From contig CAZVFX010000003.1 in assembly GCA_964626565.1 (NCBI GenBank), positions 45,906 to 109,905 on the forward strand: a DNA stretch of 64,000 nt, written 5' to 3'. Of the stretch, positions 13,341 through 47,913 are shown piece by piece (position 1 is the stretch's first letter; every line of letters begins with the position of its first letter). This stretch comes from an uncultured Myxococcales bacterium. Its GTDB lineage: Bacteria > Myxococcota_A > UBA9042 > CAIXZC01. The notes under the pieces were generated by a model. The model worked only from the letters and a program-made list of their open reading frames with translations, was not told the DNA's origin and did not search any database. The translations under genes were made by a program, and so were the position numbers.

Positions 13341-13344
13341 GGTT

Positions 13345-13650
13345 CTATCCCTCTTTTTTGCAATCCGTCACGCAAGCGATGAGGTTTCTAAGCCCCTGTT
13401 CCTTGATGGAATAAGTCGCGCGCCCGCCGGTACGGTCAACGTGGACCAGCCCCACCATCCTCAACACCGCAAGGTGCTGGGAAACAAGGCTCTGCCTGAC
13501 GTCGAGTCGCTGACAAAGCTGACTCACGGTCTGCGGGTCCTCGCAAAGTGCAGCGATACTTCTGAGCCGCAACGGGTGAGCGACCGCCTTCAACATCTCG
13601 GCCAACTGCTGAGCCCTTTCGAGGTCTTCAACTATGTTGCTCTTTGCCAT
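13345..13650 (-). CDS. ArsR/SmtB-family transcriptional regulator, first gene of the operon
   Basis: LAEMLKAVAHPLRLRSIAALCEDPQTVSQLCQRLDVRQSLVSQHLAVLRMVGLV is the ArsR HTH signature; a 4-nt gap separates it from psrA. Confidence 0.8.
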   Translation of the reverse strand: MAKSNIVEDLERAQQLAEMLKAVAHPLRLRSIAALCEDPQTVSQLCQRLDVRQSLVSQHLAVLRMVGLVHVDRTGGRATYSIKEQGLRNLIACVTDCKKEG

Positions 13651-17395: not shown

Positions 17396-20300
17396 CTAGT
17401 CAGGTTGGCAGGAGCCGGGGTTGCCCGGTTCGCAGTGAGCGTCGGGATCGCATTGGGAATCGTAGGTACACATGTTGGCGCAAGCGGGGGGCAACTGGTC
17501 CACCTGGCCGTTGCAGTGAACCGCCTTGTAGAGGCCGCAGTCGTCGCTTTCCACCGATTGATCGCAGCCCGCATCGTCGCCGACGATCACAGTGCCGCAA
17601 ACCGACAGCTCGCACGTGGCGTCCTGGCGTTCCCCTTCACACAAGGGGGGAGAGATGCACTCCGACGGGCTGGCGTATTCGGCCGGACAATCCCCGGCGA
17701 CAAAACAGCAGTCCCCCGTCTCACAACAGAAGCCGTTTTGACAGTAGCCGGAAGTGCAATCGCCGTTTTCATCGCAAGTTTTTCCATCAGCGAGGTCAGC
17801 CAGGCAGTGGCCACCATCGCAGTGGGCTAAGGCGGTGCACTCCTCGTCTACCAGGCAGGCGACAGGGCAGGAAGGCGGTTGCTGGTCGCCGTCCCCGGAG
17901 CAGTAGACCGGATCGTAGAAGCCACAATCCAGGGCCGGGGACTGGCCGTCACACGCGGAGTCGTCGGCCACCTCCAGGCTGACGCAAACGTTGGCCTGGC
18001 AGGCCGCTTCGAGCCTGGAACCCTGGCAGGTTTGCGGATCCTGGCAGGTCGCCGATTCCGAGTACTCTCCGGGACAGTGGTTCGCCAACGCGCAGCAATC
18101 TCCCGAGGAGCAGCAGAATCCGTTCTGACAATGGAAGGACTGACAGTCGGAGTCCTCGTCGCAGGCGGCGCCATCACCCAAATCGGCAAGGCAGGCGCCA
18201 TCGCAATGAGCGCTCGCGTCGCACTCGTCGTCACCTAGGCAAACCGTGGGGCAAAGCGGTTGCTCCTGTTGCACACTGCCGTTGCACACCACCGAAAGAA
18301 ACGGCCCGCAGTCATGGGCTTCGGTCCACCAGCCACACCCGGAATCGTCTTCCGCTTCGAGGCTGCCGCATACGAAGTTGTCACAGGTTGCATCCACGCG
18401 GTGCCCCTGGCAGCCGGCCGCGTCGTCACACGCCGGGTACTTCTTGTATTGCCCGGGGCAGCCCGCGGCCGAAAGGCAGCAATCACCGCTATCGCAGCAG
18501 ATTGCGTGGTTACAGTGGCCGGAGTTGCAGTCGGAGTCCTCGTTGCACGACGCTCCGTCCGGAAGGTCGCCGAGGCACACCCCGTCACAATGGGCGCCCG
18601 GGTCACACTCGTCATCCGCCAGGCACTCCAGCGGGCACAACGGGGAGTCCTGGTCTTCTTCCCCCGTGCAGAAAAGGTCAAGGTACGCGCCGCATCCCGC
18701 CGCGTTCACTTGCTGCGTGCACGCGGAGTCATCTGCTACGATATCGGACCCACATACGAAGTCGGCGCACGTCGCGTCCACCCGCTGCCCCTGACAATCT
18801 GCGGGCCACAGGCAACCGGGAAGTGAGGAGTAGTCCGGCGGGCACTCAGCGGCATCGATACAGCAGTCGCCGCTCTGGCAGCAAATACCTGCCGAGCAGT
18901 GTCCGGACGTGCAGTCGGAGTCCTCGTCACACTCCAGGCCGTCGCCGACATCCGGAACGCAGATGTTCTGCCCGGGTCCCGGGTCGCAATGGGCGCCGGG
19001 ATCGCAATGACCGTCGGCCTGGCATTCTTCCGGACAGGCCGGACCGGGCTGCGAAACCTCACCGGTGCAGAGCACGGGCAGAAACAAACCGCAATCGTCT
19101 GCCGTCACATCTTCGGTACAGCCCGAGTCGTCGTCGACGGCCAGTTCCCCGCACTGGTGGTTCGTACAAACCGCATCGACCCGCTGCCCCTGGCACGCGG
19201 CAGGCTCTTCGCACTGAGGCGAGGCGGAGAACTCCGGTGGACAGTTCGAAGCCGTTGCGCAACAGGCGCCTTGCGCACAGCAATAGCCGTTACCGCAGTG
19301 GCCACCGGCGCAGTCGGAATCCTCGTTGCACTCCAGCCCGTCGTCAATGTCCGGCTCACAGACACCGTCGCAATGAGCCTGGTCGTCGCACTCGGAATCC
19401 CACTGGCAGGCCTCGGGGCAACCCGGGGCAGGTTGATACTTGGCGCCGGTGCAATAGACATCGGCAAACAACCCGCAATCCCCGGCCAGCACCAGAGGAC
19501 CGCACGCACTGTCGTCAAGCACCAGGTCAGACACGCAAATGAAGTTGCTGCATCCGCGGTCCTGCCGGGTGCCCTGGCAGCTCTCAGGGGTCACGCACAC
19601 CGGCGGGCTGTCGTACTCCGGCGGACAGTGGTAGTTGAACTGGCAGCAATCGCCAGAGGCACAGCAGAAACCGTTCTGGCAGTGTCCGGAGATGCAATCG
19701 CTCGCCTCGTCGCAGGAAAGACCATCGGTGAGGTCGGGCTTGCAAATGGAATCGCAGTGATAGTCGGGCGCGCACTGCGAGTCCTCACCGCACGTTTGCG
19801 AACATTCGGGCTCCGGTTGTGCCGGCTCGCCGGTGCAATGGAGGTCTGGAAACGGTCCGCAGTCGTTGGCCAGCAGGGCAATATCGCACCCGGAATCGTC
19901 GTCAACGTCGGCGCTGCCGCACCGGCTATCTTCACACACCGCGTCGACCCTGTGTCCCTGGCACGAAGCAACATCGTCGCACACCGCAGCGGCCCAGAAC
20001 TCATCAGGGCAGTCCACGGCCAGTGAGCAGCAGACATCCGAGGCGCAGCAGTAGCCGTTGGCGCAATAGCCGGATTCGCAGTCAGAGGCTTCGTCGCACT
20101 CGGCGCCGTCCTGAGCGTCCGGAAGGCACGTTTCCCCCCCCTCCAGGCCGGCAGGATCGCAATGTGCTCCGGGGTCGCATTCTTCGTCTCCGACGCAGTT
20201 GGTGGGGCACTCAGGCTTCTGCTGGTCCTGGAACGCAGCGCACATGACCGGGAGGAACAGACCACAATCGTCAACCACGTTGAGGATATTGCAAGCGCTG

Positions 20301-23356: not shown

Positions 23357-24841
23357 TCAGCAGTCAGCCGGGCAGCTCGCCATGGTTTCCGTCGCGCCGC
23401 AGACGCCGTCGCCGCAGGGGCCGCAATCATCCGCACAGTTGGCCGGCGTCTCGGGGCCGTCGCAAATGGCATCGCCGCAGGAAGCTGTGCAGTCCTGGGC
23501 ACAGGATGCGAGGGTCTCGGAGAGAGCACATATCCCGTCCCCGCACGACGCACAATCCAGGGGGCAACTGTTGGCAGTCTCGCCCGGATTGCATGCACCA
23601 TCCCCGCACGGAGGCGTACAGTCAATCGGGCAGGTACCCACGGTTTCCCCTGCGTCACATGCGCCGTTAGCGCAGGTATCCTCACAATCCCAGGGGCATG
23701 CCACGGAGTCTTCCGTCAGGTTACACACGCCGTCGCCACAATCGCCACAATCGGCGGGGCAGGCTGCTGCGTTCTCATCGGCCTGGCAGATGGAATCACC
23801 GCAGAAAGGCATGCAGTCGAGGGGACAGGTGCCGGGTCCATCCTCGTGGACCCCGCATATGCCGTCGCCGCAAGGGCCGCAGTCGTGGGGACACAACGGC
23901 ACCGATTCGGTGAGCTCACATTTGCCGTTTCCGCAGACGCCGGCACAGCCGGGCACCTCCGCGCCGGGCACACAAACACCCACCTCGCAGTGGTCTCCGG
24001 CAGTACACTGATTGCCGTCGTCGCAGGGCACACCATTGAGGGGTTGGTGAACACAACCGCCGAAGGCATCACAAGTGTCGGAGGTGCACGCCTCACCATC
24101 ATCGCAGTCGATGGTGGTCCCGGCAACGCACTGCCCGTTGATACAACTATCGCCGGTAGTGCACGGGTCCCCGTCCTCACATTGGCCTTCCAGAACGGTG
24201 TGCATGCAACCTTCCACCGGGTCACAATAGTCATCTGTGCACCAGTTGTTGTCGTCACAGGTGTTGGCCTGGCCGCCAAGGCACTCCCCCGCTTCGCACT
24301 GCTCGCCCACGGTGCACGGGTCCCCATCCTCGCACAAGTTGGTGTTGGGAGGGTTGATGCACCCTTCATCGGGAGCACAAAGGTCGTCGGTGCAGGGGTT
24401 GTCGTCCGCGCAATCAAGAGGCTCGGTGCCCGGCTTGCAGGCCCCTTGTTCGCAGAAGTCGCCGTTGGTACAGGGGTTGCCGTCGTCGCACTCACCTTCC
24501 GACAGGCTGAACGCACACTCTCCGGAAGGGGTGCAATACCCTTCGGTGCACGGGTTATCATCGCCACAGCCGGTGTCCACGACACACGTGCCGCCACAAC
24601 CGTCGTGGTCGCCGCAGCTCTTATCTTCACAGTCGGGAACACACTCACCCTCGTCGGGTTTCACGTCGGCGCCGCCCGTGTCACTGCCCCCACCGGTGTC
24701 AACCGTAACATCATCACCGGCAACTTCCGTCGCAACTTCCGGTGTGAAGCCGGCGTCGTCATCGCCGCCACCGTCACCTCCGCCGCAGGCAGAAAGGGAA
24801 AGAACGAGTGCTGCGCTCCACCAGATGACTGCTCCTCGCAT
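23357..24841 (-). CDS. Cysteine-rich secreted lipoprotein (494 aa) with CxDGNPCTxDxC repeats followed by CGDGxC...E...CPxDC repeats
   Basis: Signal AALVLSLSACGGGDG; about 8 CDDGNPCT-type repeats and about 8 CGDGICG...CP(L/A)DC repeats. Same architecture as ORF 32835..34469. Confidence 0.75.
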   Translation of the reverse strand: MRGAVIWWSAALVLSLSACGGGDGGGDDDAGFTPEVATEVAGDDVTVDTGGGSDTGGADVKPDEGECVPDCEDKSCGDHDGCGGTCVVDTGCGDDNPCTEGYCTPSGECAFSLSEGECDDGNPCTNGDFCEQGACKPGTEPLDCADDNPCTDDLCAPDEGCINPPNTNLCEDGDPCTVGEQCEAGECLGGQANTCDDNNWCTDDYCDPVEGCMHTVLEGQCEDGDPCTTGDSCINGQCVAGTTIDCDDGEACTSDTCDAFGGCVHQPLNGVPCDDGNQCTAGDHCEVGVCVPGAEVPGCAGVCGNGKCELTESVPLCPHDCGPCGDGICGVHEDGPGTCPLDCMPFCGDSICQADENAAACPADCGDCGDGVCNLTEDSVACPWDCEDTCANGACDAGETVGTCPIDCTPPCGDGACNPGETANSCPLDCASCGDGICALSETLASCAQDCTASCGDAICDGPETPANCADDCGPCGDGVCGATETMASCPADC

Positions 24842-24866: not shown

Positions 24867-27800
24867 CTATCTTACAAAAATTTCGAGGTCGTTGAACAGA
24901 ACATATTCAGGGCTCGATTGATCTTCGACGCCCCACCGTAGGATATTGGACTCCGCCACCGGGGTGTTGAAGGTGTAATACTTGGACGTGCCGCCGGAAT
25001 TCCAGTCCCCGCCCCACTGCCCCCCGGTCTTGAGCACCGTTCCGGGAGTGCCGAACATAACATACCCGTTGGAGCCGTTGCCCGTCTTTCCCCAGGAGCC
25101 GGCGTTCCAGTTGTCGTCGTGATGGATGCCGCTTCCGCCGTAACCGCGCCAGCTCCCCCTCACTTCCGAAAAGGTGAACATAGTGTCGATTTCGAAGTAC
25201 ACCAGCTTGTCCCCGCCGCCGTTGTTGCTGCCGATGGCGAAAGAAGGGTTGTCCCCGTCGGTGACCACCGTATAGCCCGGTCCCACGATCACCTTGGCCT
25301 CATGTGGGAAATGCTGATAGCTGTTCACTCCGCCCACGTCCCCGGTGCTGGAAATCAGGGTCCACCCTCCCCCGTTGGTATCCATGTCGCAATAAACCTC
25401 GAAGGGATCGACACCGCCGATGCCGTCCGGATCCAGGGTGTACAACCCGCTCTCAGCGTTGGGGCTCTCGTCCAGGAAGTCTTTGCAGGACGAGATGGTG
25501 CAGCCGTTGTCCGCGATACCGCTGCAATCGTCGTCCAGGCCGTTGTCGCAGATCTCCTCGGCCTCATGGTTAATGTCAGGGTCGGTTGGAGCACAGTCGG
25601 TGATGTCGGGATCGTTGTCGTTGTCGTCATCCGGATCCACGCAGTCGGCCAGTCCGTCGGCGTCGCTGTCCGGGAAACCGTCGTCGATGCCGCCGTTGCA
25701 GTTGTTGTCCAGACCGTCGCATTCCTCAGGCTGCGAACCTTCCATCGGATCACATTCCACCTCCTGCCCTTCTGCACAAAGAGGCGTGGAGTGGAGGCAT
25801 TCTCCAAGGCCGCAGGAGAGCATCCCCAGCCCCTCATCAAGGAGGCCGTCACAGTCGTTGTCAACCCCGTCACATTCCTCTGCCACCGCCCCTTCCTTTG
25901 GATCACACACCTGGGGGACCCCGTCCGCACAGTTCTGGACGATGTGGGTGCATACTCCCTGGCCGCACGAAGTCGACCCGAGTCCGTCATCCTCCAGACC
26001 GTTGCAGTCGTTGTCCAGGCCGTCGCAAATCTCCGGGGCAACGCCCAGGAAGGGGTCGCACACCGCGATCTTTCCATCAACGCAATAATCCTGCTCGTGA
26101 AAACACTCGCCTTTGCCGCACTGCACCGAACCGAGGTCTTCGTCCACCGCGTCATCGCAATCGTTGTCCTGGCCGTCACAGACCTCGGCCGCCGCCCCTT
26201 CCATGGGATTGCACACCTGCGGCACACCGCCCACGCACACCGGCACCGTGTTCTCGCACGCGCCCAGACCGCAGGTAATCTGGCCCAGATTCTCATCCAC
26301 CTGTCCGTCGCAATCGTTGTCGATTCCGTCGCATATTTCTACACCAACACCCTCCTCCGCGTTGCAGTCTTGTGGGATGCCACCGACGCAATTCTGAACG
26401 GTGTGAAGGCAAACGCCGAGCCCGCAGGTGGTGGTGCCCAGGTCTTCATCGACCAGGCCGTCGCAGTCGTTGTCGTTTCCATCACATTTTTCGAGCTCAA
26501 CACCCTCCATCGCCTCGCAGACTTGAGGGATACCACCGACGCAATTGTCAACGGTATGATTGCACACACCCAGGCCGCAGGTGGTGGTGCCCAAATCCTC
26601 ATCCACACTATCATCGCAGTCGTTGTCAAGGCCGTCGCACACTTCCATGGCCGCGGGGTTGATGGTCGCATCGAGGGGAGCGCAGTCCGCGTCGTCGGAA
26701 TGACCGTCGTTGTCGTCATCAAGATCGGTACAGTCTTTGAGCCCATCCAGGTCGCTATCGTTAAAACCCTCGTCGATGAGGCCGTTGCAGTTGTTGTCTA
26801 CGCCGTCGCAAACCTCCTGGGCGCCGGGATTCACGTTGGGGTCGAGCGGAGCGCAGTCTTCTGCGTCGGGGGTGCCGTCGCCGTCCTTGTCCCCCTCACA
26901 CGCATCCCCCACGCCGTCATTGTCGCTATCCTCCTGCCCCGGGTTCTCTACACCAACACAATTGTCCGCGCTGTCTTCCACGCCGTCTCCGTCCAGGTCG
27001 TCGTCGCACGCGTCGCCCAGACCATCCCCGTCGATGTCCGACTGTTGCGTGTTTTTTACGCCAACACAGTTGTCCGCGCTATCGGGTATTGCATCTCCGT
27101 CAGCGTCGGGGTCGCAAGCATCGCCCAGGCCATCCTCATCCAGGTCCTCCTGGCCCGGATTCTCCACGCCAACACAATTATCCGCACTGTCGGCGACGCC
27201 GTCGTCGTCGGCGTCGTCGTCCACGCAGTCAGCCACACCATCTCCATCGATATCCGGGAATCCGTCGTCCACATCCCCGTCACAATCGTTGTCCAGGCCG
27301 TCGCAGATTTCGGCCGCACCAGGGAACACCGACGCATCAGTCGGCGCACAGTCGGCGCCATCAACGACGCCATCGTTGTCGTCATCTTCGTCCACGCAGT
27401 CCTTCCACCCGTCCGCGTCGGTGTCGGTGGACCCTTCATCCACTATGAAGTTGCAGTTGTTGTCCTTGCCGTCGCACAACTCCTCGGCGCCGGGATGGAT
27501 GTCCTGGTCGAAAGGAGCACAGTCCTCCGCATCCGAGGTCTGGTCGTTGTCGTCGTCCAGGTCGCAGACGTCGCCAAAATTGTCCAGGTCATTGTCCTCC
27601 TGCCCCGGGTTGTTCACGCCAACACAGTTATCCGCGCTGTCGACGATGCCATCTCCATCTTTGTCGGTCTCCATGCAGTCAGCGATCCCATCGTCGTCGG
27701 TATCTTCGAAACCCTCGTCGGTGGCGCCGTCGCAATCGTTGTCCTCGCCGTCGCAGCTTTCCGCGTGCGCCTCTTCTCCTTCGCACACCAGTTTGCCCTG

Positions 27801-28682
27801 GTCGCACGCATACTCTCCGGCACAGGTGCCGAACTCGTTGGCCACCAGGCAGGCGTCGCCCCCGGTGTCCTCGTCAATTTCGCCGTCGCAGTCGTCGTCC
27901 TGACCGTTACACTCGTCCACTTCCGGCTCAGGTGCCGAACAAGGGGTCAGGCCATCCGCCATGCACTGGCGGTCGCCGAAACATCTACCCCACTCGTTTT
28001 CCGCGAAACAATCAGTGGCCGCACCTTCATCAATGTACCACTGGTTGCACTCACATTCTCCCTGGGACCGCGTGCACTGAGTCACCGCTCCGCCGGCCAC
28101 ATCTTTGCCATCGCCACAGTAGTAGCCTGCCGGGCAATCTTCGTCATCGTCACAATTGGCGCCACAGAAGTTTCCACCTTCCCCGTAATCTACGCAGGAC
28201 TGCCCGGCGTCGACGCCGTTGGTCCAACATTCGTCGTTCTGCGTACACGGCCGGCACAGGTCAACCATGGTAGGTACGCAAATGAACACCTGGTCCGGCA
28301 TGCTCGGAGGGTGCAGGAAACAACTCCAGTCGAAGGGGCACTCTTCCACGCAGGAGATGGTACACTGCATCCCGTCCGCGGTCTGGATACAGAATCCCGA
28401 GTCGCAGTCAGCCGCTCCCTCGCACGGATACCCCGCCGCGCCTGGCTCAGGCCCGCACGCATCCCCGCACACGTCCGCCAACGCTTCTCCGAAGTCCCAA
28501 CCGTCGGTTTTCGCGTCTTCGTCCAGCGACTCAGGCTCCACCCCGGCGTCGTCGGCCACCTCAGCCGGTGCAAAGCCGTCCCCGGCATCGACACCACCAA
28601 GGTCCTCAGACACCGTAACCGCACCGTCGCCACAAGCCATCGACAAGACAACCGCTGCAAAAAGAACAATCCCTATTCTCAT
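24867..28682 (-). CDS. Giant (about 1270 aa) secreted lipoprotein G3 with TSP3 repeats, MopE-like repeats and a C-terminal fibrinogen-like domain; the start is the internal M (MRIGIVLFAAVVLSMACGDG)
   Basis: The N-terminal module is nearly identical to G1 (GYPCEGAADCDSGFCIQTADGMQCTISCVEECPFDW...). It carries TSP3 DxDxDGxxDxxDNC repeats and six CGLGxC...CDGxDNDCDGxxDE repeats. The C-terminus CKDFLDESPNAESGLYTLDPDGIGGVDPFEVYCDMDTNGGGWTLI matches the fibrinogen C-terminal domain signature. Confidence 0.8.
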   Translation of the reverse strand: MRIGIVLFAAVVLSMACGDGAVTVSEDLGGVDAGDGFAPAEVADDAGVEPESLDEDAKTDGWDFGEALADVCGDACGPEPGAAGYPCEGAADCDSGFCIQTADGMQCTISCVEECPFDWSCFLHPPSMPDQVFICVPTMVDLCRPCTQNDECWTNGVDAGQSCVDYGEGGNFCGANCDDDEDCPAGYYCGDGKDVAGGAVTQCTRSQGECECNQWYIDEGAATDCFAENEWGRCFGDRQCMADGLTPCSAPEPEVDECNGQDDDCDGEIDEDTGGDACLVANEFGTCAGEYACDQGKLVCEGEEAHAESCDGEDNDCDGATDEGFEDTDDDGIADCMETDKDGDGIVDSADNCVGVNNPGQEDNDLDNFGDVCDLDDDNDQTSDAEDCAPFDQDIHPGAEELCDGKDNNCNFIVDEGSTDTDADGWKDCVDEDDDNDGVVDGADCAPTDASVFPGAAEICDGLDNDCDGDVDDGFPDIDGDGVADCVDDDADDDGVADSADNCVGVENPGQEDLDEDGLGDACDPDADGDAIPDSADNCVGVKNTQQSDIDGDGLGDACDDDLDGDGVEDSADNCVGVENPGQEDSDNDGVGDACEGDKDGDGTPDAEDCAPLDPNVNPGAQEVCDGVDNNCNGLIDEGFNDSDLDGLKDCTDLDDDNDGHSDDADCAPLDATINPAAMEVCDGLDNDCDDSVDEDLGTTTCGLGVCNHTVDNCVGGIPQVCEAMEGVELEKCDGNDNDCDGLVDEDLGTTTCGLGVCLHTVQNCVGGIPQDCNAEEGVGVEICDGIDNDCDGQVDENLGQITCGLGACENTVPVCVGGVPQVCNPMEGAAAEVCDGQDNDCDDAVDEDLGSVQCGKGECFHEQDYCVDGKIAVCDPFLGVAPEICDGLDNDCNGLEDDGLGSTSCGQGVCTHIVQNCADGVPQVCDPKEGAVAEECDGVDNDCDGLLDEGLGMLSCGLGECLHSTPLCAEGQEVECDPMEGSQPEECDGLDNNCNGGIDDGFPDSDADGLADCVDPDDDNDNDPDITDCAPTDPDINHEAEEICDNGLDDDCSGIADNGCTISSCKDFLDESPNAESGLYTLDPDGIGGVDPFEVYCDMDTNGGGWTLISSTGDVGGVNSYQHFPHEAKVIVGPGYTVVTDGDNPSFAIGSNNGGGDKLVYFEIDTMFTFSEVRGSWRGYGGSGIHHDDNWNAGSWGKTGNGSNGYVMFGTPGTVLKTGGQWGGDWNSGGTSKYYTFNTPVAESNILRWGVEDQSSPEYVLFNDLEIFVR

Positions 28683-28897
28683 CCTCTCCCCCTGCTTCAC
28701 CCTCGAACGCCAGCATGCGCCACATGTTCGCGCACGCAGCATGCGTTGCCAAATTTTCTGTTGGGCCCGGGGCTCACTGTTTCCGTTGCAATCCGCGTGC
28801 AAGGCCACCTATTCTGGTAGCGTCGCATTTCAGGAAGAGGTTGAGGGAAGACCGAGAAGGAACAGTTGTAGGGCCGCCGGACAAGCAAGGAGTCTCA

Positions 28898-29727: not shown

Positions 29728-29859
29728 CCATCCGACCCCTGAGCGTCAGCCATGGGCCGCCCCCAACACTCCAGCCAAAGAAATCCGCATAGTATCAATT
29801 CTTATTATGCATTGGGCTTATAGGCCAGAAAGGCCCATTATTCAGGTAGGAGGTGAACG

Positions 29860-30915
29860 ATGAATACCAGAAAGGATGTGCGACTGACCAAACACTCTCA
29901 CTGTGCGGGGTGAGCGGCCAAGTTCGGTCCTACGGACCTCGCTCAGGTTCTGAGCGGCTTGCCTGCAATCACCGACCCCAACGTCCTGGTAGGGACCGCC
30001 ACGGCTGACGACGCGGCGGTGTACCGCGTGTCGGATGATGTGGCGGTGATCGAGACGTTGGATTTCTTCACACCTATCGTCGACGACCCCTACATGTTCG
30101 GCGCCATTGCCGCGGCAAACTCCCTGAGCGATGTGTACGCCATGGGCGGGAAGCCTGTTCTGGCGCTCAACATAGTCGCGTTTCCCAGGGACAGCGCTCA
30201 GACTCCCATATGGGTGCTCAACGAGATACTCAAGGGCGGCTCCGACAAGGCTGCCGAGGCGGGGATAAGTATCGTTGGCGGTCACACCATCGACGATCCC
30301 GGACCAAAGTACGGTTTGTCTGTGACCGGCCTTGTGCATCCCGACCGGATCTGGCGGAACACCGGGGCCAAGCCCGGCGACCGGCTGATTCTCACCAAGC
30401 CTCTTGGCATCGGCATCATCACCACGGCGTTGGGGGCCGGCGCGGCCAGCGAGAAGTGGACGCAGGGCGCAATCGACTACATGGCCGAGCTCAACGGCCC
30501 GGCCGCGGCGGTGGCGGCCGAGGTAGGAGTGCGGGCTTGCACCGATATTACCGGCTTCGGGTTCCTGGGTCATTTGCACGAGATGCTTGGAAGCGAGGGG
30601 CTGGGTGCGAGAGTCTCCGCATCCTCGGTTCCGGTGTTGGAAGGCGCGCACGAGCTGGCACTGGCCGGGCACGTGCCGGGAGGCTCCCGGCGCAACCGGG
30701 AATCGCTCTCGGACCGTGTGTTGTTCCATGGTGCGGTGGCAGAAGAAGACCACCTCGTTCTGAGCGACGCCCAGACTTCGGGCGGACTGCTATTCGCAGT
30801 TGATGAATCAAAGGCCGGCGAGTTGGTTTCAGGGCTTGAGTTGGCCGGGGCCCTCGCAGCCGACGTCGGCGAGTTCTACAAGTCAAAGGCGGCGCTGATT
30901 GAGGTTGTTCCGTAG
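29860..30915 (+). CDS. selD: Selenide, water dikinase (selenophosphate synthetase) with an in-frame TGA (29911-29913) encoding selenocysteine
   Basis: Manual translation gives RBS AGGAGG, then ATG 29860 [45 protein letters not shown], in frame with track ORF 29959..30915. The rest aligns with E. coli SelD (AVY..DFFTPIVDDPY.FG.IAA.NSLSD..AMGGKP, GGHTIDDPGP, TDITGFG). The Sec replaces the catalytic Cys17. Confidence 0.8.
29914..29945 (+). promoter_or_regulatory. Candidate bacterial SECIS-like hairpin (GGUCC-UAC-GGACC) 13 nt downstream of the selD UGA
   Basis: Stem-loop read from sequence. It is short relative to canonical SECIS elements. Confidence 0.35.
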
Positions 30916-30938: not shown

Positions 30939-31721
30939 ATGGGCGAGTACGCGCTGGTACTGTTGCTTGGATTTGCCATCAGTCTGGTTTCCGGGCTGCT
31001 GGGAATCGGTGGCGGCATTGTCATGGCGCCGGCCTTGCTCTATCTTCCGCCCTTTCTTGGCGTTGCCGGATACGACATGAAGCAGGTGGCTGGACTCACC
31101 ATCACTCAGGGCCTCGCCGCGTGCGTGTCCGCGGCGCTGCGGCATGACAAACATCGCCAGGTGAATTGGCGGCTCGTAAGGTGGATGGGACCTGCGATAC
31201 TGGTGACCGCGCTGACAGGCTCGGTGGTTTCCAAGTGGACCGCCAGCGCGACCCTACTCCTGGTGTTCGCCGGCCTTGCCGCCGTAGCTGCAGTCCTGAT
31301 GTTCTTTGCAAGTCGCGAGGAGTCCAGGCCGGCGGGCGCTGACCCTAACGCCTTCAGTGTGCCGGTGGCTGTTGCAATTGCGGCGACAGTGGGCGCGCTT
31401 GGAGGCATGGTGGGCCAGGGCGGTTCATTCATCCTGATACCGCTCATACTCGTCTTTCTACGTCTGCCTACCAGAATGGTCATCGGCACTAATCTGGCCC
31501 TTGTGGCCTTCGCCTCCCTCGCCGGATTTGTCGGCAAAATGGCCACCAACCAGATTCTTCTCCTCCCCGCCCTCTTCCTGGTGGCGGGCGCAATCCCCGG
31601 GGCACAACTCGGCAGCGTGCTCAGCCAACAGACCCAGGCCGTTTGGCTGAGGCGGGCGCTCACCCTCGTGATATTCGCGTTGGCGGTTGGAATCGGCGCT
31701 CACGCCATCGGCCAATCGTGA
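30939..31721 (+). CDS. TauE/SafE (DUF81) family anion permease; a putative sulfite/selenium-compound exporter
   Basis: 8-TM protein with the paired GxxxG-rich repeats typical of DUF81 (LLGIGGGIVMAP ... GALGGMVGQGGSFILIP). Confidence 0.7.
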   Translation: MGEYALVLLLGFAISLVSGLLGIGGGIVMAPALLYLPPFLGVAGYDMKQVAGLTITQGLAACVSAALRHDKHRQVNWRLVRWMGPAILVTALTGSVVSKWTASATLLLVFAGLAAVAAVLMFFASREESRPAGADPNAFSVPVAVAIAATVGALGGMVGQGGSFILIPLILVFLRLPTRMVIGTNLALVAFASLAGFVGKMATNQILLLPALFLVAGAIPGAQLGSVLSQQTQAVWLRRALTLVIFALAVGIGAHAIGQS

Positions 31722-31736: not shown

Positions 31737-32624
31737 CTACCCGTTCAGCGTCGCCTCCATCAAGCCGATGAACGAACGCATCACCGGTGACAGGTGCTTG
31801 TCAAGGTGTTGCACAAGGTAGATTGGGCGCTTGAGGTTCAGACCCCCCACCCGGATCCTGCCCAACCGCCCACTGGCAATTTCGCCTTCCGCCGCGTGGA
31901 TTGACATCAGGGAAACGCCAACACCCGCCGCGACCAGCGCCTTAATCGCCTCGGAGGAACTCAACTCGATTACGTGGCCAAAATTGCATCCCGCTTCAGC
32001 GAACCAGGCTTCGGCCAGTCTTCGGGTGGCGGAGCCCCGCTCCCGGACAACACATATTTCGTCGGACAGCTCCTCCGGAGCCACCAGCTTGCGCCGGACC
32101 AGCGGATGAGAGGGTTCGGAGATGCAGACTATCTCGTCCATGACCACGGGCCGTGACGCCAGGACGGGACTCTGGGGCACCTCACCAATCAACCCCATGT
32201 CCAACTCGTTGCTGACAATCCCCTGTTCGATCACCCGGGAGTTCGCCACCGTGTAGCTCAACTCGCTATCCGGGTGCTGCCGATGAAAATCCCCTACCAC
32301 TGACGGCAGCAGGCAGCATCCGGGGGTCGCGCTGGCGCCGATCCTCAGACGTCCCTTGCCGGCCTCGGCATATCCGCGCACCATCTCGGCAGCCCTTTCC
32401 ATGGCGCCCAGCAGGCGCTCGGCCTCAGCCGCCAGCGTCTCCCCGGCGCCGGTGAGATGCAGCGCCTTGCCCAGTTGCTCGAAAAGCCGCACTCCCAGCT
32501 CTCGTTCCAACTCACGGATCCGACGGGATGCCGCCGGTTGCGAGATATACAACTCCTCGGCGGCACGGGTGTAGTTACGGTGCTTGCGCACAGCCAGAAA
32601 GGTCTGCAGGTGTACTGGATTCAT
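31737..32624 (-). CDS. LysR-family transcriptional regulator
   Basis: The N-terminal HTH LQTFLAVRKHRNYTRAAEELYISQPAASRRIRELERELGVRLFEQ plus a LysR substrate-binding domain. Confidence 0.85.
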   Translation of the reverse strand: MNPVHLQTFLAVRKHRNYTRAAEELYISQPAASRRIRELERELGVRLFEQLGKALHLTGAGETLAAEAERLLGAMERAAEMVRGYAEAGKGRLRIGASATPGCCLLPSVVGDFHRQHPDSELSYTVANSRVIEQGIVSNELDMGLIGEVPQSPVLASRPVVMDEIVCISEPSHPLVRRKLVAPEELSDEICVVRERGSATRRLAEAWFAEAGCNFGHVIELSSSEAIKALVAAGVGVSLMSIHAAEGEIASGRLGRIRVGGLNLKRPIYLVQHLDKHLSPVMRSFIGLMEATLNG

Positions 32625-32834: not shown

Positions 32835-34469
32835 TTGAAAGTCCTTGCGACCGCGGCTGCCGTAGCCTGTTTGCTGGCCGGATGCGTATCCAAGCCGGAC
32901 CCCTGGACTCCGTTCAGGGATACCGGAGAGCCTGACCTGACTCGGACGGAAGAGATTGCCGGAGCGGACGTTGGGGCCGAACTGCTCGACGCCGAGACGG
33001 AAGCCACCGCACCCGATCTGTTCGTTCCGGACGAGCAGAAGTTCGAGATCTGTGCGCCTGAGTGCATTTCCGAAAATCCCTGCACCGATGCCTACTGTGA
33101 AGCCGGGGAGTGCGTGCACCAGCCGGTTGATGGCTCATGCGACGACGGCGACCCATGCACCGAAGGAGACACGTGCGAGGCCGGTGAATGCAAACCAGGC
33201 TCCGACCAGTTCGAATGCGACGATTTTAACTCGTGTACGGACAATCTGTGCATCGCCGGAGTTGGGTGCCAGTACGATCCCAACGCCGCGGATTGCGACG
33301 ACGAGGATCCGTGCACCGTCGGTGACAAGTGCGAAGGCGGGGAGTGCAAGGCTGGACCCGACCCGCTGGCCTGCGACGACGGCAACGACTGCACTTTTAA
33401 CTCCTGCGCAGCCGGCGAAGGGTGCAAGTACGAGCCGAAAGATCAGGCCGCGTGCGACGACGGCTTCACCTGCACCAACAAGGACACCTGCCAGGGCAAG
33501 GTGTGCGTCGGCGAGCAGGTATCCTGCAACGACAACAACCCGTGTACGGTAGACACCTGCGACCCCACCGTGGGCTGCGTTTTCGAACCGGCCACCGGGG
33601 CTGAATGCGATGACGGCAACGAGTGCACCAAGCAGGACGCGTGTATCGGCCCTATGTGCATCGGCCCTCAGTTTGCTGATTGGATCCTTGAGTGCAAGGA
33701 GGATGCGTGCGGCAACGGCATCTGCCAGGGCGATAACAGCGCGACCAACTGCCCCACTGACTGTGGCCCTTGCGGCGACGGGGTGTGTGGACACCACGAG
33801 GTGGTGGAAGGAGTTGCCGGCGGCCTTTGTCCCATGGACTGCCTTCCCCCCTGCGGCGACGGAGAATGCGAGGCCGGCGAATTGGAAGGATGCCCCGTTG
33901 ACTGTGGCGGCTGCCCGGACGGCTATTGCGGTCTCTACGAAACGCCGGAATCGTGCCCGGACGACTGCCCCACTGCGTGTGGAGACGGTGTGTGCACCCC
34001 CGGGGAGAGCTTGCTGCTGTGTCCCACCGACTGCAAAACCCCCTGCGGAGACAAGCTTTGCGCCCAGGGCGAGAGCCCCTACAACTGCCCGGTGGACTGC
34101 GGTCTCTGCCCCGACGGCTACTGTGCCGCGGACGAAGACGTAGAATCGTGCCCATGGGATTGCGACAAACCGTGCGGCAACGGGGTCTGCGACGGCGGCG
34201 AAGATTTTGACAGTTGTAAGATTGACTGCGGCTATTGCGGAGACGGAGTGTGCGGCAAGACCGAGAACCACTCCCAGTGCCCGGGCGACTGCCCGGATGG
34301 GTGCGGGGATGGCCTCTGCGTCGAACCTGAGACGCTCGAGAACTGCGTAATCGACTGTGGCGAGATACCCGACTGCGTCGACAAAGACTGCGGCGGCGAC
34401 GGCTTCGGCGGACAGTGCGGCCAGTGTCCGGCGGGCACAGAGTGCAACGCCGAAGGGCAGTGTGTCTAG
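32835..34469 (+). CDS. Cysteine-rich secreted lipoprotein (544 aa), TTG start, with CxDGDPCTxGDxC repeats followed by CPxDCGxCGDGxC repeats
   Basis: Signal MKVLATAAAVACLLAGCVSKPD. Same two-part architecture as ORF 23357..24841. RBS AGGAGGG upstream. Confidence 0.75.
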   Translation: MKVLATAAAVACLLAGCVSKPDPWTPFRDTGEPDLTRTEEIAGADVGAELLDAETEATAPDLFVPDEQKFEICAPECISENPCTDAYCEAGECVHQPVDGSCDDGDPCTEGDTCEAGECKPGSDQFECDDFNSCTDNLCIAGVGCQYDPNAADCDDEDPCTVGDKCEGGECKAGPDPLACDDGNDCTFNSCAAGEGCKYEPKDQAACDDGFTCTNKDTCQGKVCVGEQVSCNDNNPCTVDTCDPTVGCVFEPATGAECDDGNECTKQDACIGPMCIGPQFADWILECKEDACGNGICQGDNSATNCPTDCGPCGDGVCGHHEVVEGVAGGLCPMDCLPPCGDGECEAGELEGCPVDCGGCPDGYCGLYETPESCPDDCPTACGDGVCTPGESLLLCPTDCKTPCGDKLCAQGESPYNCPVDCGLCPDGYCAADEDVESCPWDCDKPCGNGVCDGGEDFDSCKIDCGYCGDGVCGKTENHSQCPGDCPDGCGDGLCVEPETLENCVIDCGEIPDCVDKDCGGDGFGGQCGQCPAGTECNAEGQCV

Positions 34470-34531
34470 CTTCTGCCGGGCCGGGCGAACTCCGTTCCCC
34501 GGTGAACTCAACGGAATCCATAGGGTGTAAC

Positions 34532-37500
34532 ATGCGCGTTCCTCTTCTTCTTCTACCCCTGCTCCTCTTGTGCGGATGTCCTTCCGGCTCTCCCACCGTA
34601 GAACCGGGCGATGACTCCATCGACGCGATTGAGATTCTCGACGCTTCGCGCGCTGACGCCAATCTGCTCGACCGGGCTGTCCCCGAAGACCGGGGCGGGG
34701 GCGACCGCGGGCAGACCGAAGTTGCCGCGTGTGAACCCGGCAACGCCCAGGCCGGCTGTTCCTGCGCCGGCGACGAAGACTGCGCCACCGGCAGTTGCAC
34801 CCTTCACTTCGGTTCAAAGGTATGTGCAGCACCTTGTGCCGCGGGCTGCCCCGAAGGGTGGGAATGCGGAGATGACGACGGAGCCTCAGGCCTCTGCTCC
34901 TCCCTCTTCCCGACGCTGTGCCTGCCGTGCTTTGCCAGCGACCAGTGCGGAGAAAATGACGCACTCTGCGCGCTTCACCCCGACGCCACCGGCGCGTTTT
35001 GCGGGGCAGCCTGCGATGAATTCTCCCCCTGCCCGGCCGGTTGGTCGTGCAAACCAGTGGACACCATCGAGGGCGAAAAAAGCCACCAGTGCATCGTAAA
35101 AGCAGGCACTTGCCTGTGCTCCGATTACGCGGTGGACCAAGGGCTGGAGGCCTACTGCGAAACCAGCAACGAATTGGGCGCGTGCGCGGGCCTTCGTCAG
35201 TGCGTCGACGGAGGTCTGTCCCCTTGCGACGCGCCCGAACCGCAGGACGAGAGTTGCGACGGACTGGACAACGACTGCGACGGCGAGGTGGACGAGGAAA
35301 CCACCTGCGACGACGGGGACGCTTGCACCGAAGACGACTACTGCGACCAGGGAGAGTGCACAGGGCAAGCGGTGGAATGTGACGACGGCGACCTTTGCAC
35401 CACTGACAGTTGCCTCCCCGAATCGGGCTGTTCGTTCGAGCCCAATGAATTGGCTTGCGAGGAAGATGGCGACCCGTGCACCGAAGACGTCTGCGTCGAT
35501 GGAGCATGCTCGCACCCGCCGGGCAACGACGGAATGCCCTGCGACGACCTGGACGACTGCACCACCGGTGATCACTGTTTCGAAGGTGCATGCATTTACG
35601 ACGACTACCTGGACATGTGCAAGCTGGTGTGCTCGGACGGTCTGTGTATCTTCCCCGAGAACCCGGATGATTGCCCTGAAGATTGCGGCCCGTGCGGGGA
35701 CGGGGTGTGCGGTTTCCACGAAAACGGACCCGACGGGGGAACCTGCCCCATGGACTGCCTGACCCCCTGCGGCGACGGGCTGTGTGAGTACGGCGAAAGC
35801 CCCGAATATTGTGTAGTGGACTGCGGCGGCTGCGGCGACGGACTGTGCGGCCTTCATGAGGACGGGGTGGTCTGCCCCAACGACTGTCCGCCCGCCTGCG
35901 GCAACGCAGTTTGCGAGCAGGATGAAACCATTGAGATTTGTACGGTTGACTGCATTCCGCCGTGCGGGGACGGCCTCTGTGTAGATTTTGAAAATCCGTA
36001 CAACTGTCCCACCGACTGCTCACTTTGCGACGACGGCGTCTGCGGCATTTCGGAGGACCAGGAATCGTGTCCGCAGGACTGCATGGTCATTTGCGGAAAC
36101 GGACTGTGCGAAGGTGGGGAAAACCCGGAAGAATGTGCGGTGGATTGCGGCTGGTGCGGAGACGGGGTGTGCGGGTTCGCTGAAACAGGATCCAACTGCC
36201 CCGCAGACTGTTTCGTAGGCTGCGGCGACAACCTGTGCGGCCCCGACGAAGACGGCCTGAGCTGCCCCTTGGACTGCACGGTAGATGCAGACGGGGACGG
36301 CTTCGAGGACCTGGTGGACAACTGTCCCTGGCTGTTCAACCCGGAACAGATAAACAGTGACAACGACGCGTCGGGGGATATGTGCGACCTGGACGACGAC
36401 AACGACGGCGACCTGGACGCGAGTGACTGCGCCCCCCTGGACCCGGAAGTTTCGTACCTGGCTGACGAACAATGCGACGGCGTGGACAACGACTGTGATG
36501 ACGAAGTCGACAACGAGGCCGAATGCGCACCCGGCCTCGAATGCCTGGGCGGCGACTGCATCTGCCCGCCCGACTGCGAGGGCAAAGAGTGCGGACCCGA
36601 CGGATGCGACGGGGAATGCGGCCAGTGCCCGGAAGAGCAGTTCTGCCTGGCCGACGGAAGCTGCCTGTGCGTGCCCGACTGCGTGGGCAAAGGGTGCGGC
36701 GACGACGGCTGCGAAGGTAGCTGCGGAGAGTGCACCGGATTCCAGGAAATATGCTTGGATTTCAGTTGCGTCTGCTCCCCCGACTGCGAAGGGAAGGAGT
36801 GCGGAAGCGACGGTTGCGGCGGTCAATGCGGTCAATGTGATGCAGGCGTGGCATGCGACGAGGGTTTGTGCGTCGCTTGCGTCGATGACGGCTCCGGCGG
36901 CTGCGACGACGGCGAGATCGTTGAATTCCCGGTGAGCGATGAGAGCGGAGCAGACCAGAGAGACCCGGCCGTAGCCACCCTCAGCGGCGGTGGTTTTGTT
37001 GTCTCGTGGACCGATTCGAAAGAGGATGGTCCGGTCGCCGAAGAGATTTACGCCCGTGTTTACGGCCCCTCCGGGCAGCCGTTGGCCCAGTCCTTTCTCG
37101 TGAACAGCGGACAGCAAGGTGGCGGCCAGTTCAACTCCACCGTCACGAGGATCCAGGATGGCACCTTCGCCATTGGCTGGGACGACCTGGGCGCCGGGGC
37201 CCCCGCGGGCATGAGGGCCCGCGGGTTCGAGGCGGATGGCACCCCGGTGGCAGCTTCTTTCGCCGGGACAAATCTACCCGCAGTGCCGCCCGTCTACCCC
37301 GCAGCAGGGGAAGCGTGGGAGAATACGTTTGTGATGGTGTGGCAAAATGAACATCCGGACACACCTCAGCGGTACGTTTACATCCTGCAGTTCGACACCA
37401 TGGGCATACTTTACGACAGCGATGCCCAGGTTTCGCAGACGCCGGTGGGAGCGGACGCCAAGGTCGCACTGTCGTCAAACGGAATTGGCGACGGGGCGAT

Positions 37501-40138
37501 TGTGGCATGGGGCGGTGACAACACACCTGTGCAAAGCGTGACGGTAAACTGGGCTGGTACCTTCGGTGGCGAAATTGAAGTGAGCGCCGAGCCCGGAATT
37601 CCGTCCCTCGCACCCCTCCCCGGCGGCGGCCATATTATCGCGTGGGCGGATGAAGGCGGGACCGTCGCGGTCCGACGCTACAGCATCGCCAATACCCCCC
37701 TCGGGCCAGCGGTCGGGCTGAGCTCGCAGGGGACCGGGGCATCGGTTGCTACGGTTGCGGACGGCACTGTGCTTGTGGCCTGGGCCGAGGAAGGAGATGG
37801 CGGCAGCCAGATCCTTTACAGTATTTTGCCCGCTGACGGAGGGCCGGCGACTGTGCCGGTCGCTCTGAGCAGCGCCGACTCCCTGGACAATTCGGCCACA
37901 GCAACCGCCGCGTTCCAAGACGGCAACCGGTTCGTAGTCGTCTGGGAGAGCAATTTCGGCGGTGACCAGGGTTGGGACATCAGCGCCATGTGCGTGAGCA
38001 AGCTGGGCCACAAAATGCATCTTTGCGACCCATGTGGCGACGGTGTATGCGGCGGGGGAGAAACATGCGAGAGTTGCGAGCAGGACTGCGGTCCCTGTTC
38101 GCCAGGTTGCGGCGACAACACCTGCGGCGCCATCGAATCGCCGTGCAGTTGCCCCGCAGATTGCGGTCTACCCTGTGAGAACGAAGTGTGTGGGGACGAC
38201 GGATGCGGCGGTAGCTGCGGCTTGTGCCCCGGGTGGCAGGATGCCTGCACCGGCGGCCAGTGCATCTGCCAGATCAATTGCGAGGGTAAGGAGTGCGGAG
38301 CTGACGGTTGCGGGGGAGAATGCGGGGACTGCCCGGGGGAACAGATGCACTGCGTCGAGGGCGGCGTGTGCCAGTGTTTCGGGAGCTGCGGCGGCAATGA
38401 GTGCGGAGACGATGGCTGCGGCGAGAGCTGCGGCGAGTGCCCTGATGACAAGGTGTGTCATCCCGACGGTTACTGCGACTGCCCGCCCGACACATCGCAG
38501 TGCGACGACTTGTGCTGCCCGGCAGACGAAATCTGCATCGGGATCAACGAATGCTGCAAGCCCAACTGCACCGACAAGGAGTGCGGCGACGACGGCTGCG
38601 GATCGCTGTGCGGCGAATGCCAGGCCAATCTGGAGTGCGACCAGTTCGGCAAGTGCCGGTGCAACGACTTCAACGTCTTCGACTGGGACGGCTGCAAAGA
38701 TCAACTTCCCGCCGAAGTGCAGGTGAACGACATCACGTCAGGCTGCCAGCGGGAGCCTGCCATCTGCGCCGTGAGCGACGACGATCTGTACGTTGCAGTG
38801 TGGTCGGGCGCCGGCACCCACGACCCCGGGGGAATCTACGGCCGAAGATTCACTGCGGACGGCCTTCCCACAGGGGGACAATTCCACATCGGTGGTGCAA
38901 CTTCGGGAAAGGAGGAGAGATTCCCGGACGTGTCATGCTACCAGGCATCGCAGTTCGTGACAGCCTACCAGCGCGGCTCGCCGGACGACTACGACATCTA
39001 TTTGCAGCGCATGGATATCACCGGAAACGCGGTGGACCAGGAGCAGCAGGTCAACGTCTTTGCCGGGGGCACCCAGGAACTGGCTTCAGTAGCAGTGAGC
39101 GAGTCCGGAGGGTGGGTAGTAGCCTGGCAAAGTTCAGATCCCCAGGGCTCCAACTCTTCGGACGGTTCCGACAACGGCATCTACGCGCGCTTCTACAACG
39201 AAGGCGAGCAGCCCTTTGGCCCGGAGAAGCCGGTGAACGCTTTCACCAACGGTGCACAGGAGGCACCCTCAGCTGCAGCCCTTGCCGACGGGACCTACGT
39301 GATCGCCTGGTCGAGCCAGGGACAGATGGGTGGAGGGCTTCCTTCGGTCATACTTCGGCACTACGACCACGACGGCAGCCCTTCCGGCGGGGAGATTTCC
39401 ATCAACGCCGCGGCCGACTATCTGCAACTGGAACCTGCGGTATCCGCTACCGGCGGCAGCGGATACGTGGTCACCTATGCCGGGCTGATGAACCTGGACC
39501 GCCACCTGTTTGCCCAACGATACAACTTATTCAGTGAGCCGCAGGGATTGGAGTTGCAGTTGAGCCAATACACGGGCGGAGAGCAGGGATACCCGGCTGC
39601 CGCCGGTTTTGATAACGGCGCTTTTGTGGTCGCCTGGCACGGCGAGTGGATGGAAGACACAGAAGGGTTTGACGTTGCGGTGAGAGGCGTAGACCAGAAC
39701 GGCCAGTTCCCCGGCAACCAGATTCACGTCAACACGAAATTGAAAGCCGACCAGCATTTCCCGGACGTCGCGGTCATGGGCGGAGAGGGCTTTGCAACCG
39801 TCTGGGAGAGTGACGGTCAGGACGGCGACGCCTGCGGCGTCTTTCTGCAGACGTTCGGCCCGGAGGGAAATCGACTGTACGGCGGCAATTGCGAGAGCAA
39901 CTGCAACTGGCAGGAGTGCGGCAACGACGGCTGCTGGGGTAGTTGCGGGACGTGCCAGGGCGTACAGGAAATCTGCCTCGATGGAGAATGCGCGTGCCAG
40001 CCCGCCTGCGAAGGCAAGCTGTGCGGCCCCGACGGTTGCGGCGGCGAGTGCGGACAGTGCCTCCCCGACGGATTCGATTGCACCGACGACGTCTGTAACG
40101 CGCAAGGGCAGTGCGAGTACAATCTGCAGGCCCTGTAG
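34532..40138 (+). CDS. Giant (about 1870 aa) secreted lipoprotein G4 with six domain types; the start is the internal M (MRVPLLLLPLLLLCGCPSG)
   Basis: Domain order: the conserved N-terminal Cys module; a MopE-like motif CDGLDNDCDGEVDEE; CGDG/CPxDC repeats; TSP3-like D-rich repeats; C(E/V)GKxCGxDGCxGxCGxC modules; and two blocks of ~50-aa repeats resembling those in ORF 51722..54007. Confidence 0.8.
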   Translation: MRVPLLLLPLLLLCGCPSGSPTVEPGDDSIDAIEILDASRADANLLDRAVPEDRGGGDRGQTEVAACEPGNAQAGCSCAGDEDCATGSCTLHFGSKVCAAPCAAGCPEGWECGDDDGASGLCSSLFPTLCLPCFASDQCGENDALCALHPDATGAFCGAACDEFSPCPAGWSCKPVDTIEGEKSHQCIVKAGTCLCSDYAVDQGLEAYCETSNELGACAGLRQCVDGGLSPCDAPEPQDESCDGLDNDCDGEVDEETTCDDGDACTEDDYCDQGECTGQAVECDDGDLCTTDSCLPESGCSFEPNELACEEDGDPCTEDVCVDGACSHPPGNDGMPCDDLDDCTTGDHCFEGACIYDDYLDMCKLVCSDGLCIFPENPDDCPEDCGPCGDGVCGFHENGPDGGTCPMDCLTPCGDGLCEYGESPEYCVVDCGGCGDGLCGLHEDGVVCPNDCPPACGNAVCEQDETIEICTVDCIPPCGDGLCVDFENPYNCPTDCSLCDDGVCGISEDQESCPQDCMVICGNGLCEGGENPEECAVDCGWCGDGVCGFAETGSNCPADCFVGCGDNLCGPDEDGLSCPLDCTVDADGDGFEDLVDNCPWLFNPEQINSDNDASGDMCDLDDDNDGDLDASDCAPLDPEVSYLADEQCDGVDNDCDDEVDNEAECAPGLECLGGDCICPPDCEGKECGPDGCDGECGQCPEEQFCLADGSCLCVPDCVGKGCGDDGCEGSCGECTGFQEICLDFSCVCSPDCEGKECGSDGCGGQCGQCDAGVACDEGLCVACVDDGSGGCDDGEIVEFPVSDESGADQRDPAVATLSGGGFVVSWTDSKEDGPVAEEIYARVYGPSGQPLAQSFLVNSGQQGGGQFNSTVTRIQDGTFAIGWDDLGAGAPAGMRARGFEADGTPVAASFAGTNLPAVPPVYPAAGEAWENTFVMVWQNEHPDTPQRYVYILQFDTMGILYDSDAQVSQTPVGADAKVALSSNGIGDGAIVAWGGDNTPVQSVTVNWAGTFGGEIEVSAEPGIPSLAPLPGGGHIIAWADEGGTVAVRRYSIANTPLGPAVGLSSQGTGASVATVADGTVLVAWAEEGDGGSQILYSILPADGGPATVPVALSSADSLDNSATATAAFQDGNRFVVVWESNFGGDQGWDISAMCVSKLGHKMHLCDPCGDGVCGGGETCESCEQDCGPCSPGCGDNTCGAIESPCSCPADCGLPCENEVCGDDGCGGSCGLCPGWQDACTGGQCICQINCEGKECGADGCGGECGDCPGEQMHCVEGGVCQCFGSCGGNECGDDGCGESCGECPDDKVCHPDGYCDCPPDTSQCDDLCCPADEICIGINECCKPNCTDKECGDDGCGSLCGECQANLECDQFGKCRCNDFNVFDWDGCKDQLPAEVQVNDITSGCQREPAICAVSDDDLYVAVWSGAGTHDPGGIYGRRFTADGLPTGGQFHIGGATSGKEERFPDVSCYQASQFVTAYQRGSPDDYDIYLQRMDITGNAVDQEQQVNVFAGGTQELASVAVSESGGWVVAWQSSDPQGSNSSDGSDNGIYARFYNEGEQPFGPEKPVNAFTNGAQEAPSAAALADGTYVIAWSSQGQMGGGLPSVILRHYDHDGSPSGGEISINAAADYLQLEPAVSATGGSGYVVTYAGLMNLDRHLFAQRYNLFSEPQGLELQLSQYTGGEQGYPAAAGFDNGAFVVAWHGEWMEDTEGFDVAVRGVDQNGQFPGNQIHVNTKLKADQHFPDVAVMGGEGFATVWESDGQDGDACGVFLQTFGPEGNRLYGGNCESNCNWQECGNDGCWGSCGTCQGVQEICLDGECACQPACEGKLCGPDGCGGECGQCLPDGFDCTDDVCNAQGQCEYNLQAL

Positions 40139-47100: not shown

Positions 47101-47154
47101 CAACAAACCTCCTTTCGCTGCCGGACGTAATGTAGCCAAGACAGGGTGCTTAAG

Positions 47155-47838: not shown

Positions 47839-47886
47839 GGGCTCCTCCTGGTTTGCCGCACCGAGATTAGCGCACCAGGTGTGCTG

Positions 47887-47913
47887 TTGCAAGATGGTGG
47901 TTTCTGGTATAGT
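47887..47913 (+). promoter_or_regulatory. Candidate sigma70 promoter TTGCAA-15-TATAGT upstream of giant gene G5
   Basis: Hexamers read from sequence; the spacer is slightly short. Confidence 0.3.

Follow-up and report, generated by a model that had tools for sequence, protein, structure and literature searches.

The presence of a TGA codon inside the reading frame of a selD gene raises the question of how the gene is decoded, and of which RNA element would direct the decoding. The gene lies in a window of 64,000 nucleotides, by which we mean the whole stretch of DNA that was analysed, from an uncultured bacterium that is probably related to Myxococcota. As read from the sequence, its frame runs from ATG 29860-29862 through 17 codons to an in-frame TGA at codon 18 (29911-29913), and from there stays open to TAG 30913-30915.

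29849..29853, forward strand: Shine-Dalgarno sequence GGAGG, 6 nt before the ATG at 29860, read from the sequence
29860..30915, forward strand: coding sequence of selD (selenide, water dikinase), 351 codons including the Sec codon, supported by TIGR00476, NF002098 and structure matches
29911..29913, forward strand: UGA codon 18, read as Sec, opposite Cys17 of E. coli SelD

Family profile searches with the full product, the TGA being read as a residue, gave 391.9 bits for TIGR00476 (cut-off 125) and 358.5 bits for NF002098 (cut-off 299), and the Pfam domains AIRS and AIRS_C were found on the truncated gene call. Structure matches were obtained with SelD of E. coli (3u0o; E = 1.4e-77, residues 5-340 alignable) and of Aquifex (E = 1e-63). 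Judged by its sequence, selD is a complete gene of the selenophosphate synthetase family, and its product is predicted to make selenophosphate out of selenide in an ATP-dependent reaction. The list of open reading frames nevertheless opens the gene at TTG 29959, which leaves 318 amino acids, because the TGA interrupts the frame. The initial annotation had proposed that the gene is complete only if the TGA is decoded and that the TTG start is an artefact of this codon, and both proposals are supported. Public gene callers make the identical truncated call (P0001), and nearly all of the 120 best database matches to SelD show the same truncation, with lengths of 306-333 amino acids and a coverage of the query of 87-92%. 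The nearest database sequence is 87% identical.

Alignment to 3u0o, the Cys17 form of the enzyme, places the TGA opposite Cys17 and the lysine three residues further on opposite Lys20 (U18 and K21 of the window protein), in agreement with the earlier assignment of the TGA to the catalytic Cys/Sec17 site. The counterpart of the Sec loop in 3u0o reads YSHGAG-C-GCK, a glycine-rich N-terminal loop with the catalytic Cys/Sec and Lys. SelD of Aquifex aeolicus, which naturally carries Sec, was crystallised as a Cys variant (2yye/2zod); it belongs to the same family and has the same N-terminal loop, ...G-U/C-A-A-K-x-G-P-x-D-L.... The flanking cysteines differ: the window protein has a Cys three residues before Sec (C-A-G-U), whereas E. 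coli SelD has one two residues after Cys17 (C17-G-C19). Among 87 distinct SelD homologues compared at SelD residues 15-20 (window 29902-29919), the first form, with Cys at -3 of Sec/Cys, was seen in 22 sequences and the second, U-x-C, with Cys at +2, in 21; none had both and 44 had neither.

The codon is widely shared. Of 161 related loci listed from genomes and metagenomes, 136 have TGA at the homologous codon and 25 have TGC or TGT; the relatives among the matches listed in these scans are at most 57% identical, and closer ones came from exact-protein look-ups. The same 66 nt follow the TGA in all six metagenome loci fetched (L001-L006, from five distinct sample accessions), and this recurrence, together with the TGA common to most of the related loci, shows that the codon is not an assembly error. 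Each of the eight closest fetched relatives (L167-L174, 63-87% protein identity) has an in-frame TGA at the homologous codon; for seven of these, a start codon belonging to the relative itself and the conserved N-terminal peptide were seen directly. In relatives of 66-87% identity, all of which have an ATG of their own, both the 17 codons before the TGA and those after it are conserved at the protein level, and the same GGTAGGAGG block precedes the ATG in L167 and L168. In the window itself, an in-frame TGA stop (29854-29856) lies between GGAGG and the selD ATG. The marks by which bacterial selenoproteins are recognised, an in-frame UGA opposite Cys in homologues and a UGA in orthologues, are thus both found here. 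A selD gene with an in-frame TGA for selenocysteine is a known and widespread arrangement; SelD is the second most widespread prokaryotic selenoprotein family according to a 2026 review, and ranked fourth among selenoprotein families by abundance in a survey of the Sargasso Sea (PMC1088965).

A pattern scan of the window for an in-frame TGA, a consensus hairpin and a coding signal on both sides found selD as the sole such combination in a real gene context. Two further matches of TGA and hairpin were rejected, as they sit in antisense frames of large genes. The methyltransferase gene upstream was likewise considered and dismissed as a selenoprotein gene, because its matches to families of selenoprotein methyltransferases cover the generic methyltransferase domain only and the gene ends in TAA.

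Two hairpins follow the UGA within the coding region, and the initial annotation had named the first of them as a candidate SECIS element.

29926..29938, forward strand: hairpin H1, GGUCC-UAC-GGACC, probably an accessory or spacer element; -7.2 kcal/mol, z = -2.4
29939..29957, forward strand: hairpin H2, UCGCUCAG-GUU-CUGAGCGG, the best candidate for the SECIS core and presumed SelB-binding stem-loop; -10.8 kcal/mol, z = -3.1

The bacterial SECIS (bSECIS) consensus, which follows the model of Zhang and Gladyshev (as given in PMC13188914), describes a loop of 3-9 nt, a stem of 4-16 bp, a minimum free energy of -7.5 kcal/mol or lower, a G as the first or second base of the loop, most often with a G or U after it, and 16-37 nt between UGA and loop. 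H2, which is encoded by L-A-Q-V-L-S-G, agrees with this description throughout, with a GUU loop, an 8-bp stem and sufficient stability, and with a spacing of 33 nt that is close to the upper limit. H1 has arms at 29926-29930 (GGTCC) and 29934-29938 (GGACC) around the loop TAC, with 12 nt between the TGA and its first base. Its 5-bp stem and its spacing of 17 nt are inside the consensus range, but its loop has no G and its energy narrowly misses the limit.

Conservation separates the two hairpins further. A gap-free alignment of the UGA and the following 63 nt from 113 distinct Sec-type selD sequences (alignment A2) was compared with shuffled alignments and with controls slid out of register, in which phylogenetic relatedness and coding constraints are not fully removed. 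For H2, 78.5% of cells were paired against 65.8% after shuffling, double changes numbered 135 against 64, and the covariation score was 0.408 against 0.216, a value reached by none of 500 shuffles and approached by no slid control (at most 0.15). The corresponding figures for H1 were 71.9% against 69.7%, 17 against 7.5, and 0.117 against 0.083, the last being reached by one of 500 shuffles; moreover, the control slid by -1 scored 0.157, above H1 in register. On these alignments covariation supports H1 weakly. The inner 6 bp of H2 are present in 65 of the 113 Sec-type sequences, 64 of which have a GUN loop. Neither H2 nor H1 was found in any of the 25 Cys-type selD homologues.

The most distinct signal in H2 joins the third base of the Ala codon to the opening base of another codon, four positions downstream, which is a Ser codon in the window. 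Counts for this pair were GC 32, CG 14, UA 12, AU 5 and UG 5, with 4 unpaired, and they resolve into the sets GCG/CGC (Arg; CGN), GCC/GGY (Gly; GGN), GCU/AGY (Ser, as in the window) and GCA/UGY (Cys). The residue at Ser32, four after the Ala, tracks the RNA pairing (columns 31-33 and 43-45 of alignment A2; window 29941-29943 and 29953-29955). Under synonymous resampling, the full H2 arises with P = 0.010 and uses the rare codon GCT (14%).

As a further control, 63 sequences from other lineages, among them neither the window nor its close relatives, were used to build a covariance model. This model matched 29923-29960 with 43.4 bits (E ~7e-10), its sole strong match in the 64 kb. A second match, to a CGCAGGUGCUGCG hairpin at 47737-47749 on the reverse strand (11.7 bits, E 0.32), was judged to be due to chance, and the scan for TGA and SECIS flagged nothing there. 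Rfam returned no SECIS match, either for the whole window at gathering thresholds or for 29800-30100 at E <= 10; its only match at E <= 10 in the latter interval was a miRNA, again judged to be chance. Single-sequence folds suggest a three-way junction, with H1 and H2 enclosed by an outer stem (GCGG/CAAGU with GCUUG/CUGC). This outer stem was rejected because only 47.2% of its cells are paired across the 113 sequences, against 45.5% after shuffling.

H2 was found in loci of Chloroflexota, Bacilli, Nitrospirota, Methylomirabilota, Gemmatimonadota, Actinomycetota, Verrucomicrobiota and Myxococcota, the labels of the individual loci being Dehalococcoidia, SAR202, Bacillus, Thermodesulfovibrionales, Methylomirabilota, Myxococcaceae, Longimicrobiales, Actinomycetota and Roseibacillus. 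Mariotti et al. (2015; PMC4561486, Supplement S6) derived models of the selD bSECIS for several lineages but were unable to arrive at a general one. The Clostridiales element described there is a tandem of stem1 followed by stem2, of which stem2 alone fits the consensus, and this is the same layout as in the window. Our data extend H2 beyond the Clostridiales, the sole lineage of the published tandem description.

The experimentally characterised SECIS of E. coli fdhF, whose sequence was confirmed in 5,419 E. coli genomes, is also a hairpin in the coding region after the UGA. Its apex, CAGGUCUG (GCAGGUCUGC), is similar to the H2 apex CAGGUUCUG. The geometry is different: fdhF has a single long hairpin directly after the UGA with its loop at 18 nt, whereas the loop of H2 lies at 33 nt and the separate small H1 occupies the gap. 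E. coli SelD itself has Cys in place of Sec, and its gene therefore has no SECIS.

This difference in geometry gives rise to the alternative that H1 is the SelB-binding SECIS and that H2 is accessory, for instance as a stabiliser or a pause site. H1 could be the SelB site because it is H1, not H2, that occupies the position of the SelB hairpin in fdhF, its loop starting at a distance of 17 nt from the UGA (18 nt in fdhF). It also relies on rare codons, requiring GGT (15%) and arising with P = 0.035 under synonymous resampling with the window's codon usage; some of its changes are compensatory (columns 18/26: U-A in 56 sequences, G-C in 7, A-U in 1); and of the 32 sequences whose H1 has all 5 bp, 29 carry a G in the first two loop positions. 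Against this, the loops of the window and of its closest relative, L167, are UAC and UUC and contain no G, the sequence of the loop is unstable among close relatives (UAC, UUC, GGC, GGA, CGA), and L169 and L171 form a hairpin at the H1 site in another register. When the missed energy limit and a covariation scarcely above that of shuffles are added, we regard a SelB-binding H1 as unlikely. From the sequence comparisons, the SECIS core is most likely H2 rather than H1. The earlier SECIS proposal therefore holds in part: the hairpin GGUCC-UAC-GGACC exists and starts at the 13th nt after the TGA, and a SECIS-like element is recognised here by the covariance model from other lineages, though not by Rfam, but the element that follows the consensus, covaries strongly and is missing from Cys-type genes is the neighbouring H2.

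Decoding by selenocysteine requires a dedicated machinery, and this was sought in the available sequence. The window contains no tRNA gene; profile searches found no SelA or SelB among the roughly 40 open reading frames of the window that were scanned; and selA, selB and tRNA-Sec were not found in the 9.4 kb to the left of the window (L175). This left extension, in which no tRNA gene was found, carries genes for a thiolase, an epimerase, GltX and a peptidase. The named relatives of its GltX are from Myxococcota, Myxococcales or 'Deltaproteobacteria' metagenome-assembled genomes (~56-58% identity), and one cluster of relatives at the same ~56-58% identity is labelled Clostridia in NCBI. Mariotti et al. 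(2015; PMC4561486) characterise the group of the GltX relatives as one in which Sec-type SelD and selenoproteins abound. The genes selA, selB and selC, which the initial annotation placed elsewhere in the genome, are expected and assumed to be present in the host as a logical requirement of the reading proposed here.

That none of this machinery was found in the window or in the 9.4 kb to its left speaks against the Sec reading, and is the one point in favour of a different decoding, in which the UGA would be read through or recoded as Cys, Trp or Gly in a host that has no Sec machinery. Against the latter, TGA terminates 11 of 37 open reading frames selected for the GC content of their third codon positions, and this usage indicates that TGA is an ordinary stop codon in the host; a few of these frames, near the right end of the window, are probably shadows. 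A hairpin of the SelB-type consensus follows the selD UGA, and a tRNA-Sec gene adjoins the Sec-type selD in four relatives (L041, L051, L093, L134), so that recoding without selenocysteine appears highly improbable. Hardly credible at all is a true stop, with a product from TTG 29959 or a pseudogene, which the gene callers' 318-aa frame would suggest, as that product would have no Sec/Cys and Lys loop of the catalytic N-terminus seen in solved SelD structures, while the 17 upstream codons, the ATG and the Shine-Dalgarno sequence are kept in relatives, most of which share the TGA, and a conserved, covarying hairpin lies downstream of it.

We therefore consider it very probable that selD is decoded with Sec at UGA 29911-29913, with H2 as the likeliest SECIS core and H1 as a probable accessory. 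The data show directly which gene this is, how its Sec codon aligns with Cys, and that H2 is conserved and covaries; the binding of SelB to H2 and the role of H1 we infer. Translation would begin at ATG 29860. The SECIS within the coding sequence would then recruit SelB and Sec-tRNA(Sec) at the UGA, and selenocysteine would be placed at the catalytic position that corresponds to Cys17 of E. coli SelD. In this process H2 would be bound by SelB, and H1, when folded, would probably shorten the effective distance between UGA and H2. Selenium-dependent self-control of the synthesis of Sec-type SelD is an old published idea, and synthesis of the present enzyme may plausibly depend on the supply of selenium as well, as the initial annotation proposed.

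The genes and motifs next to selD may bear on this supply.

29787..29810, strand not assigned: dyad-like motif GCATAGTATCAATTCTTATTATGC, conserved in relatives and located some 50 nt ahead of selD
30939..31721, forward strand: TauE/SafE (TSUP) membrane protein, PF01925 with 145 bits, 23 nt after selD
31737..32624, reverse strand: LysR-family regulator, convergent with tauE, best NCBIfam match NF040786

The tauE gene is probably co-transcribed with selD, as we infer from their arrangement. It also follows selD, with a LysR gene nearby, in L167, L168, L173 and L092 and partly in L171. In L018 a TauE gene is located ahead of selD instead, and no homologue of the LysR gene was detected. Against NF040786, the family of selenium metabolism-associated LysR regulators, the LysR protein scored 216.4 bits, under the cut-off of 250. 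A LysR homologue is found near selD in at least 26 loci, in agreement with the published association of LysR_Se with selD (Lin et al., 2015; PMC5322559; NF040786), where the LysR gene stands beside selD as it does in the window. A TauE partner, which the window has, is not mentioned in that paper, and a literature search yielded none that connects TauE with the supply of selenium. The dyad block GCATrGTA...CTTAyTATGC, followed by ATT, recurs upstream of selD in L167, L168, L171 and L173 with diverging flanks, and the dyad at 29787-29810 is, by its sequence and position, a candidate operator through which the neighbouring LysR may exert control.

Several very large repeat proteins are encoded in the window (2524-6765, 17396-23227, 23357-24841, 24867-28808, 32835-40138 and 47146-51708), three of them to either side of the selD cluster. 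They contain TSP type 3, MopE-like, Dicty_CTDC and fibrinogen-like GGGWT domains and an MtsC-like match, and are presumably located at the cell surface. A respiratory cluster of sulfur or selenium type lies at 6942-13650, 16-22 kb upstream of selD, and a probable toxin-antitoxin pair near the left end of the window.

303-575, forward strand: 90-aa gene upstream of the MazF/PemK-like gene, with a 4-nt overlap
572-919, forward strand: MazF/PemK-like toxin gene, overlapping the stop of the 90-aa gene by 4 nt
6942-7817, forward strand: HTH plus PBP-like protein of the respiratory cluster
7814-8995 and 8992-9564, reverse strand: two YeeE/YedE-type Sulf_transp genes of the respiratory cluster
9568-10569, reverse strand: NrfD subunit of the respiratory cluster
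10581-11126, reverse strand: 4Fe-4S subunit of the respiratory cluster
11130-13340, reverse strand: PhsA/PsrA-like molybdopterin oxidoreductase, 468 bits on thiosulfate reductase PhsA, below the cut-off
13345-13650, reverse strand: ArsR regulator of the respiratory cluster

At the right end, the reverse-strand open reading frames at 58246-63741 have an odd composition (GC1 0.73-0.80, GC2 0.32-0.39) and no family matches, and a forward-strand frame open from 63301 (~63301-64000) runs past the end of the window. The reverse-strand frames are probably shadows of a very large forward-strand gene.

A wider reading, which we offer tentatively and hold to be possible rather than probable, links the two parts of the locus. 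The tandem of H1 and H2 would be an ancient SelD SECIS shared by many phyla, in which H1 sets the distance between the UGA and the SelB hairpin, H2 with its GUN triloop is formed from the codons of L-A-Q-V-L-X, and the pairing dictates the residue X. In this lineage, selD and the TauE/TSUP permease would form a module for the uptake and activation of selenium, under the control of the LysR_Se-type regulator acting through the upstream dyad. If this module is real, TauE becomes a candidate selenium transporter.

None of these results alters current understanding. Their meaning lies first in annotation: the public gene calls of this SelD and of most of its relatives are missing the N-terminus and with it the catalytic loop, and a functional enzyme is recovered once the TGA is read as Sec. 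The gene also marks the uncultured host as a likely user of selenocysteine. At the RNA level, H2 is the element that is conserved and covaries in many phyla; it restricts one residue of the protein to Ser, Arg, Gly or Cys, and this result could sharpen models of the selD SECIS. Finally, the supply of selenium to SelD is incompletely understood according to a recent review, and the selD-tauE-lysR cluster provides a testable candidate for this supply.
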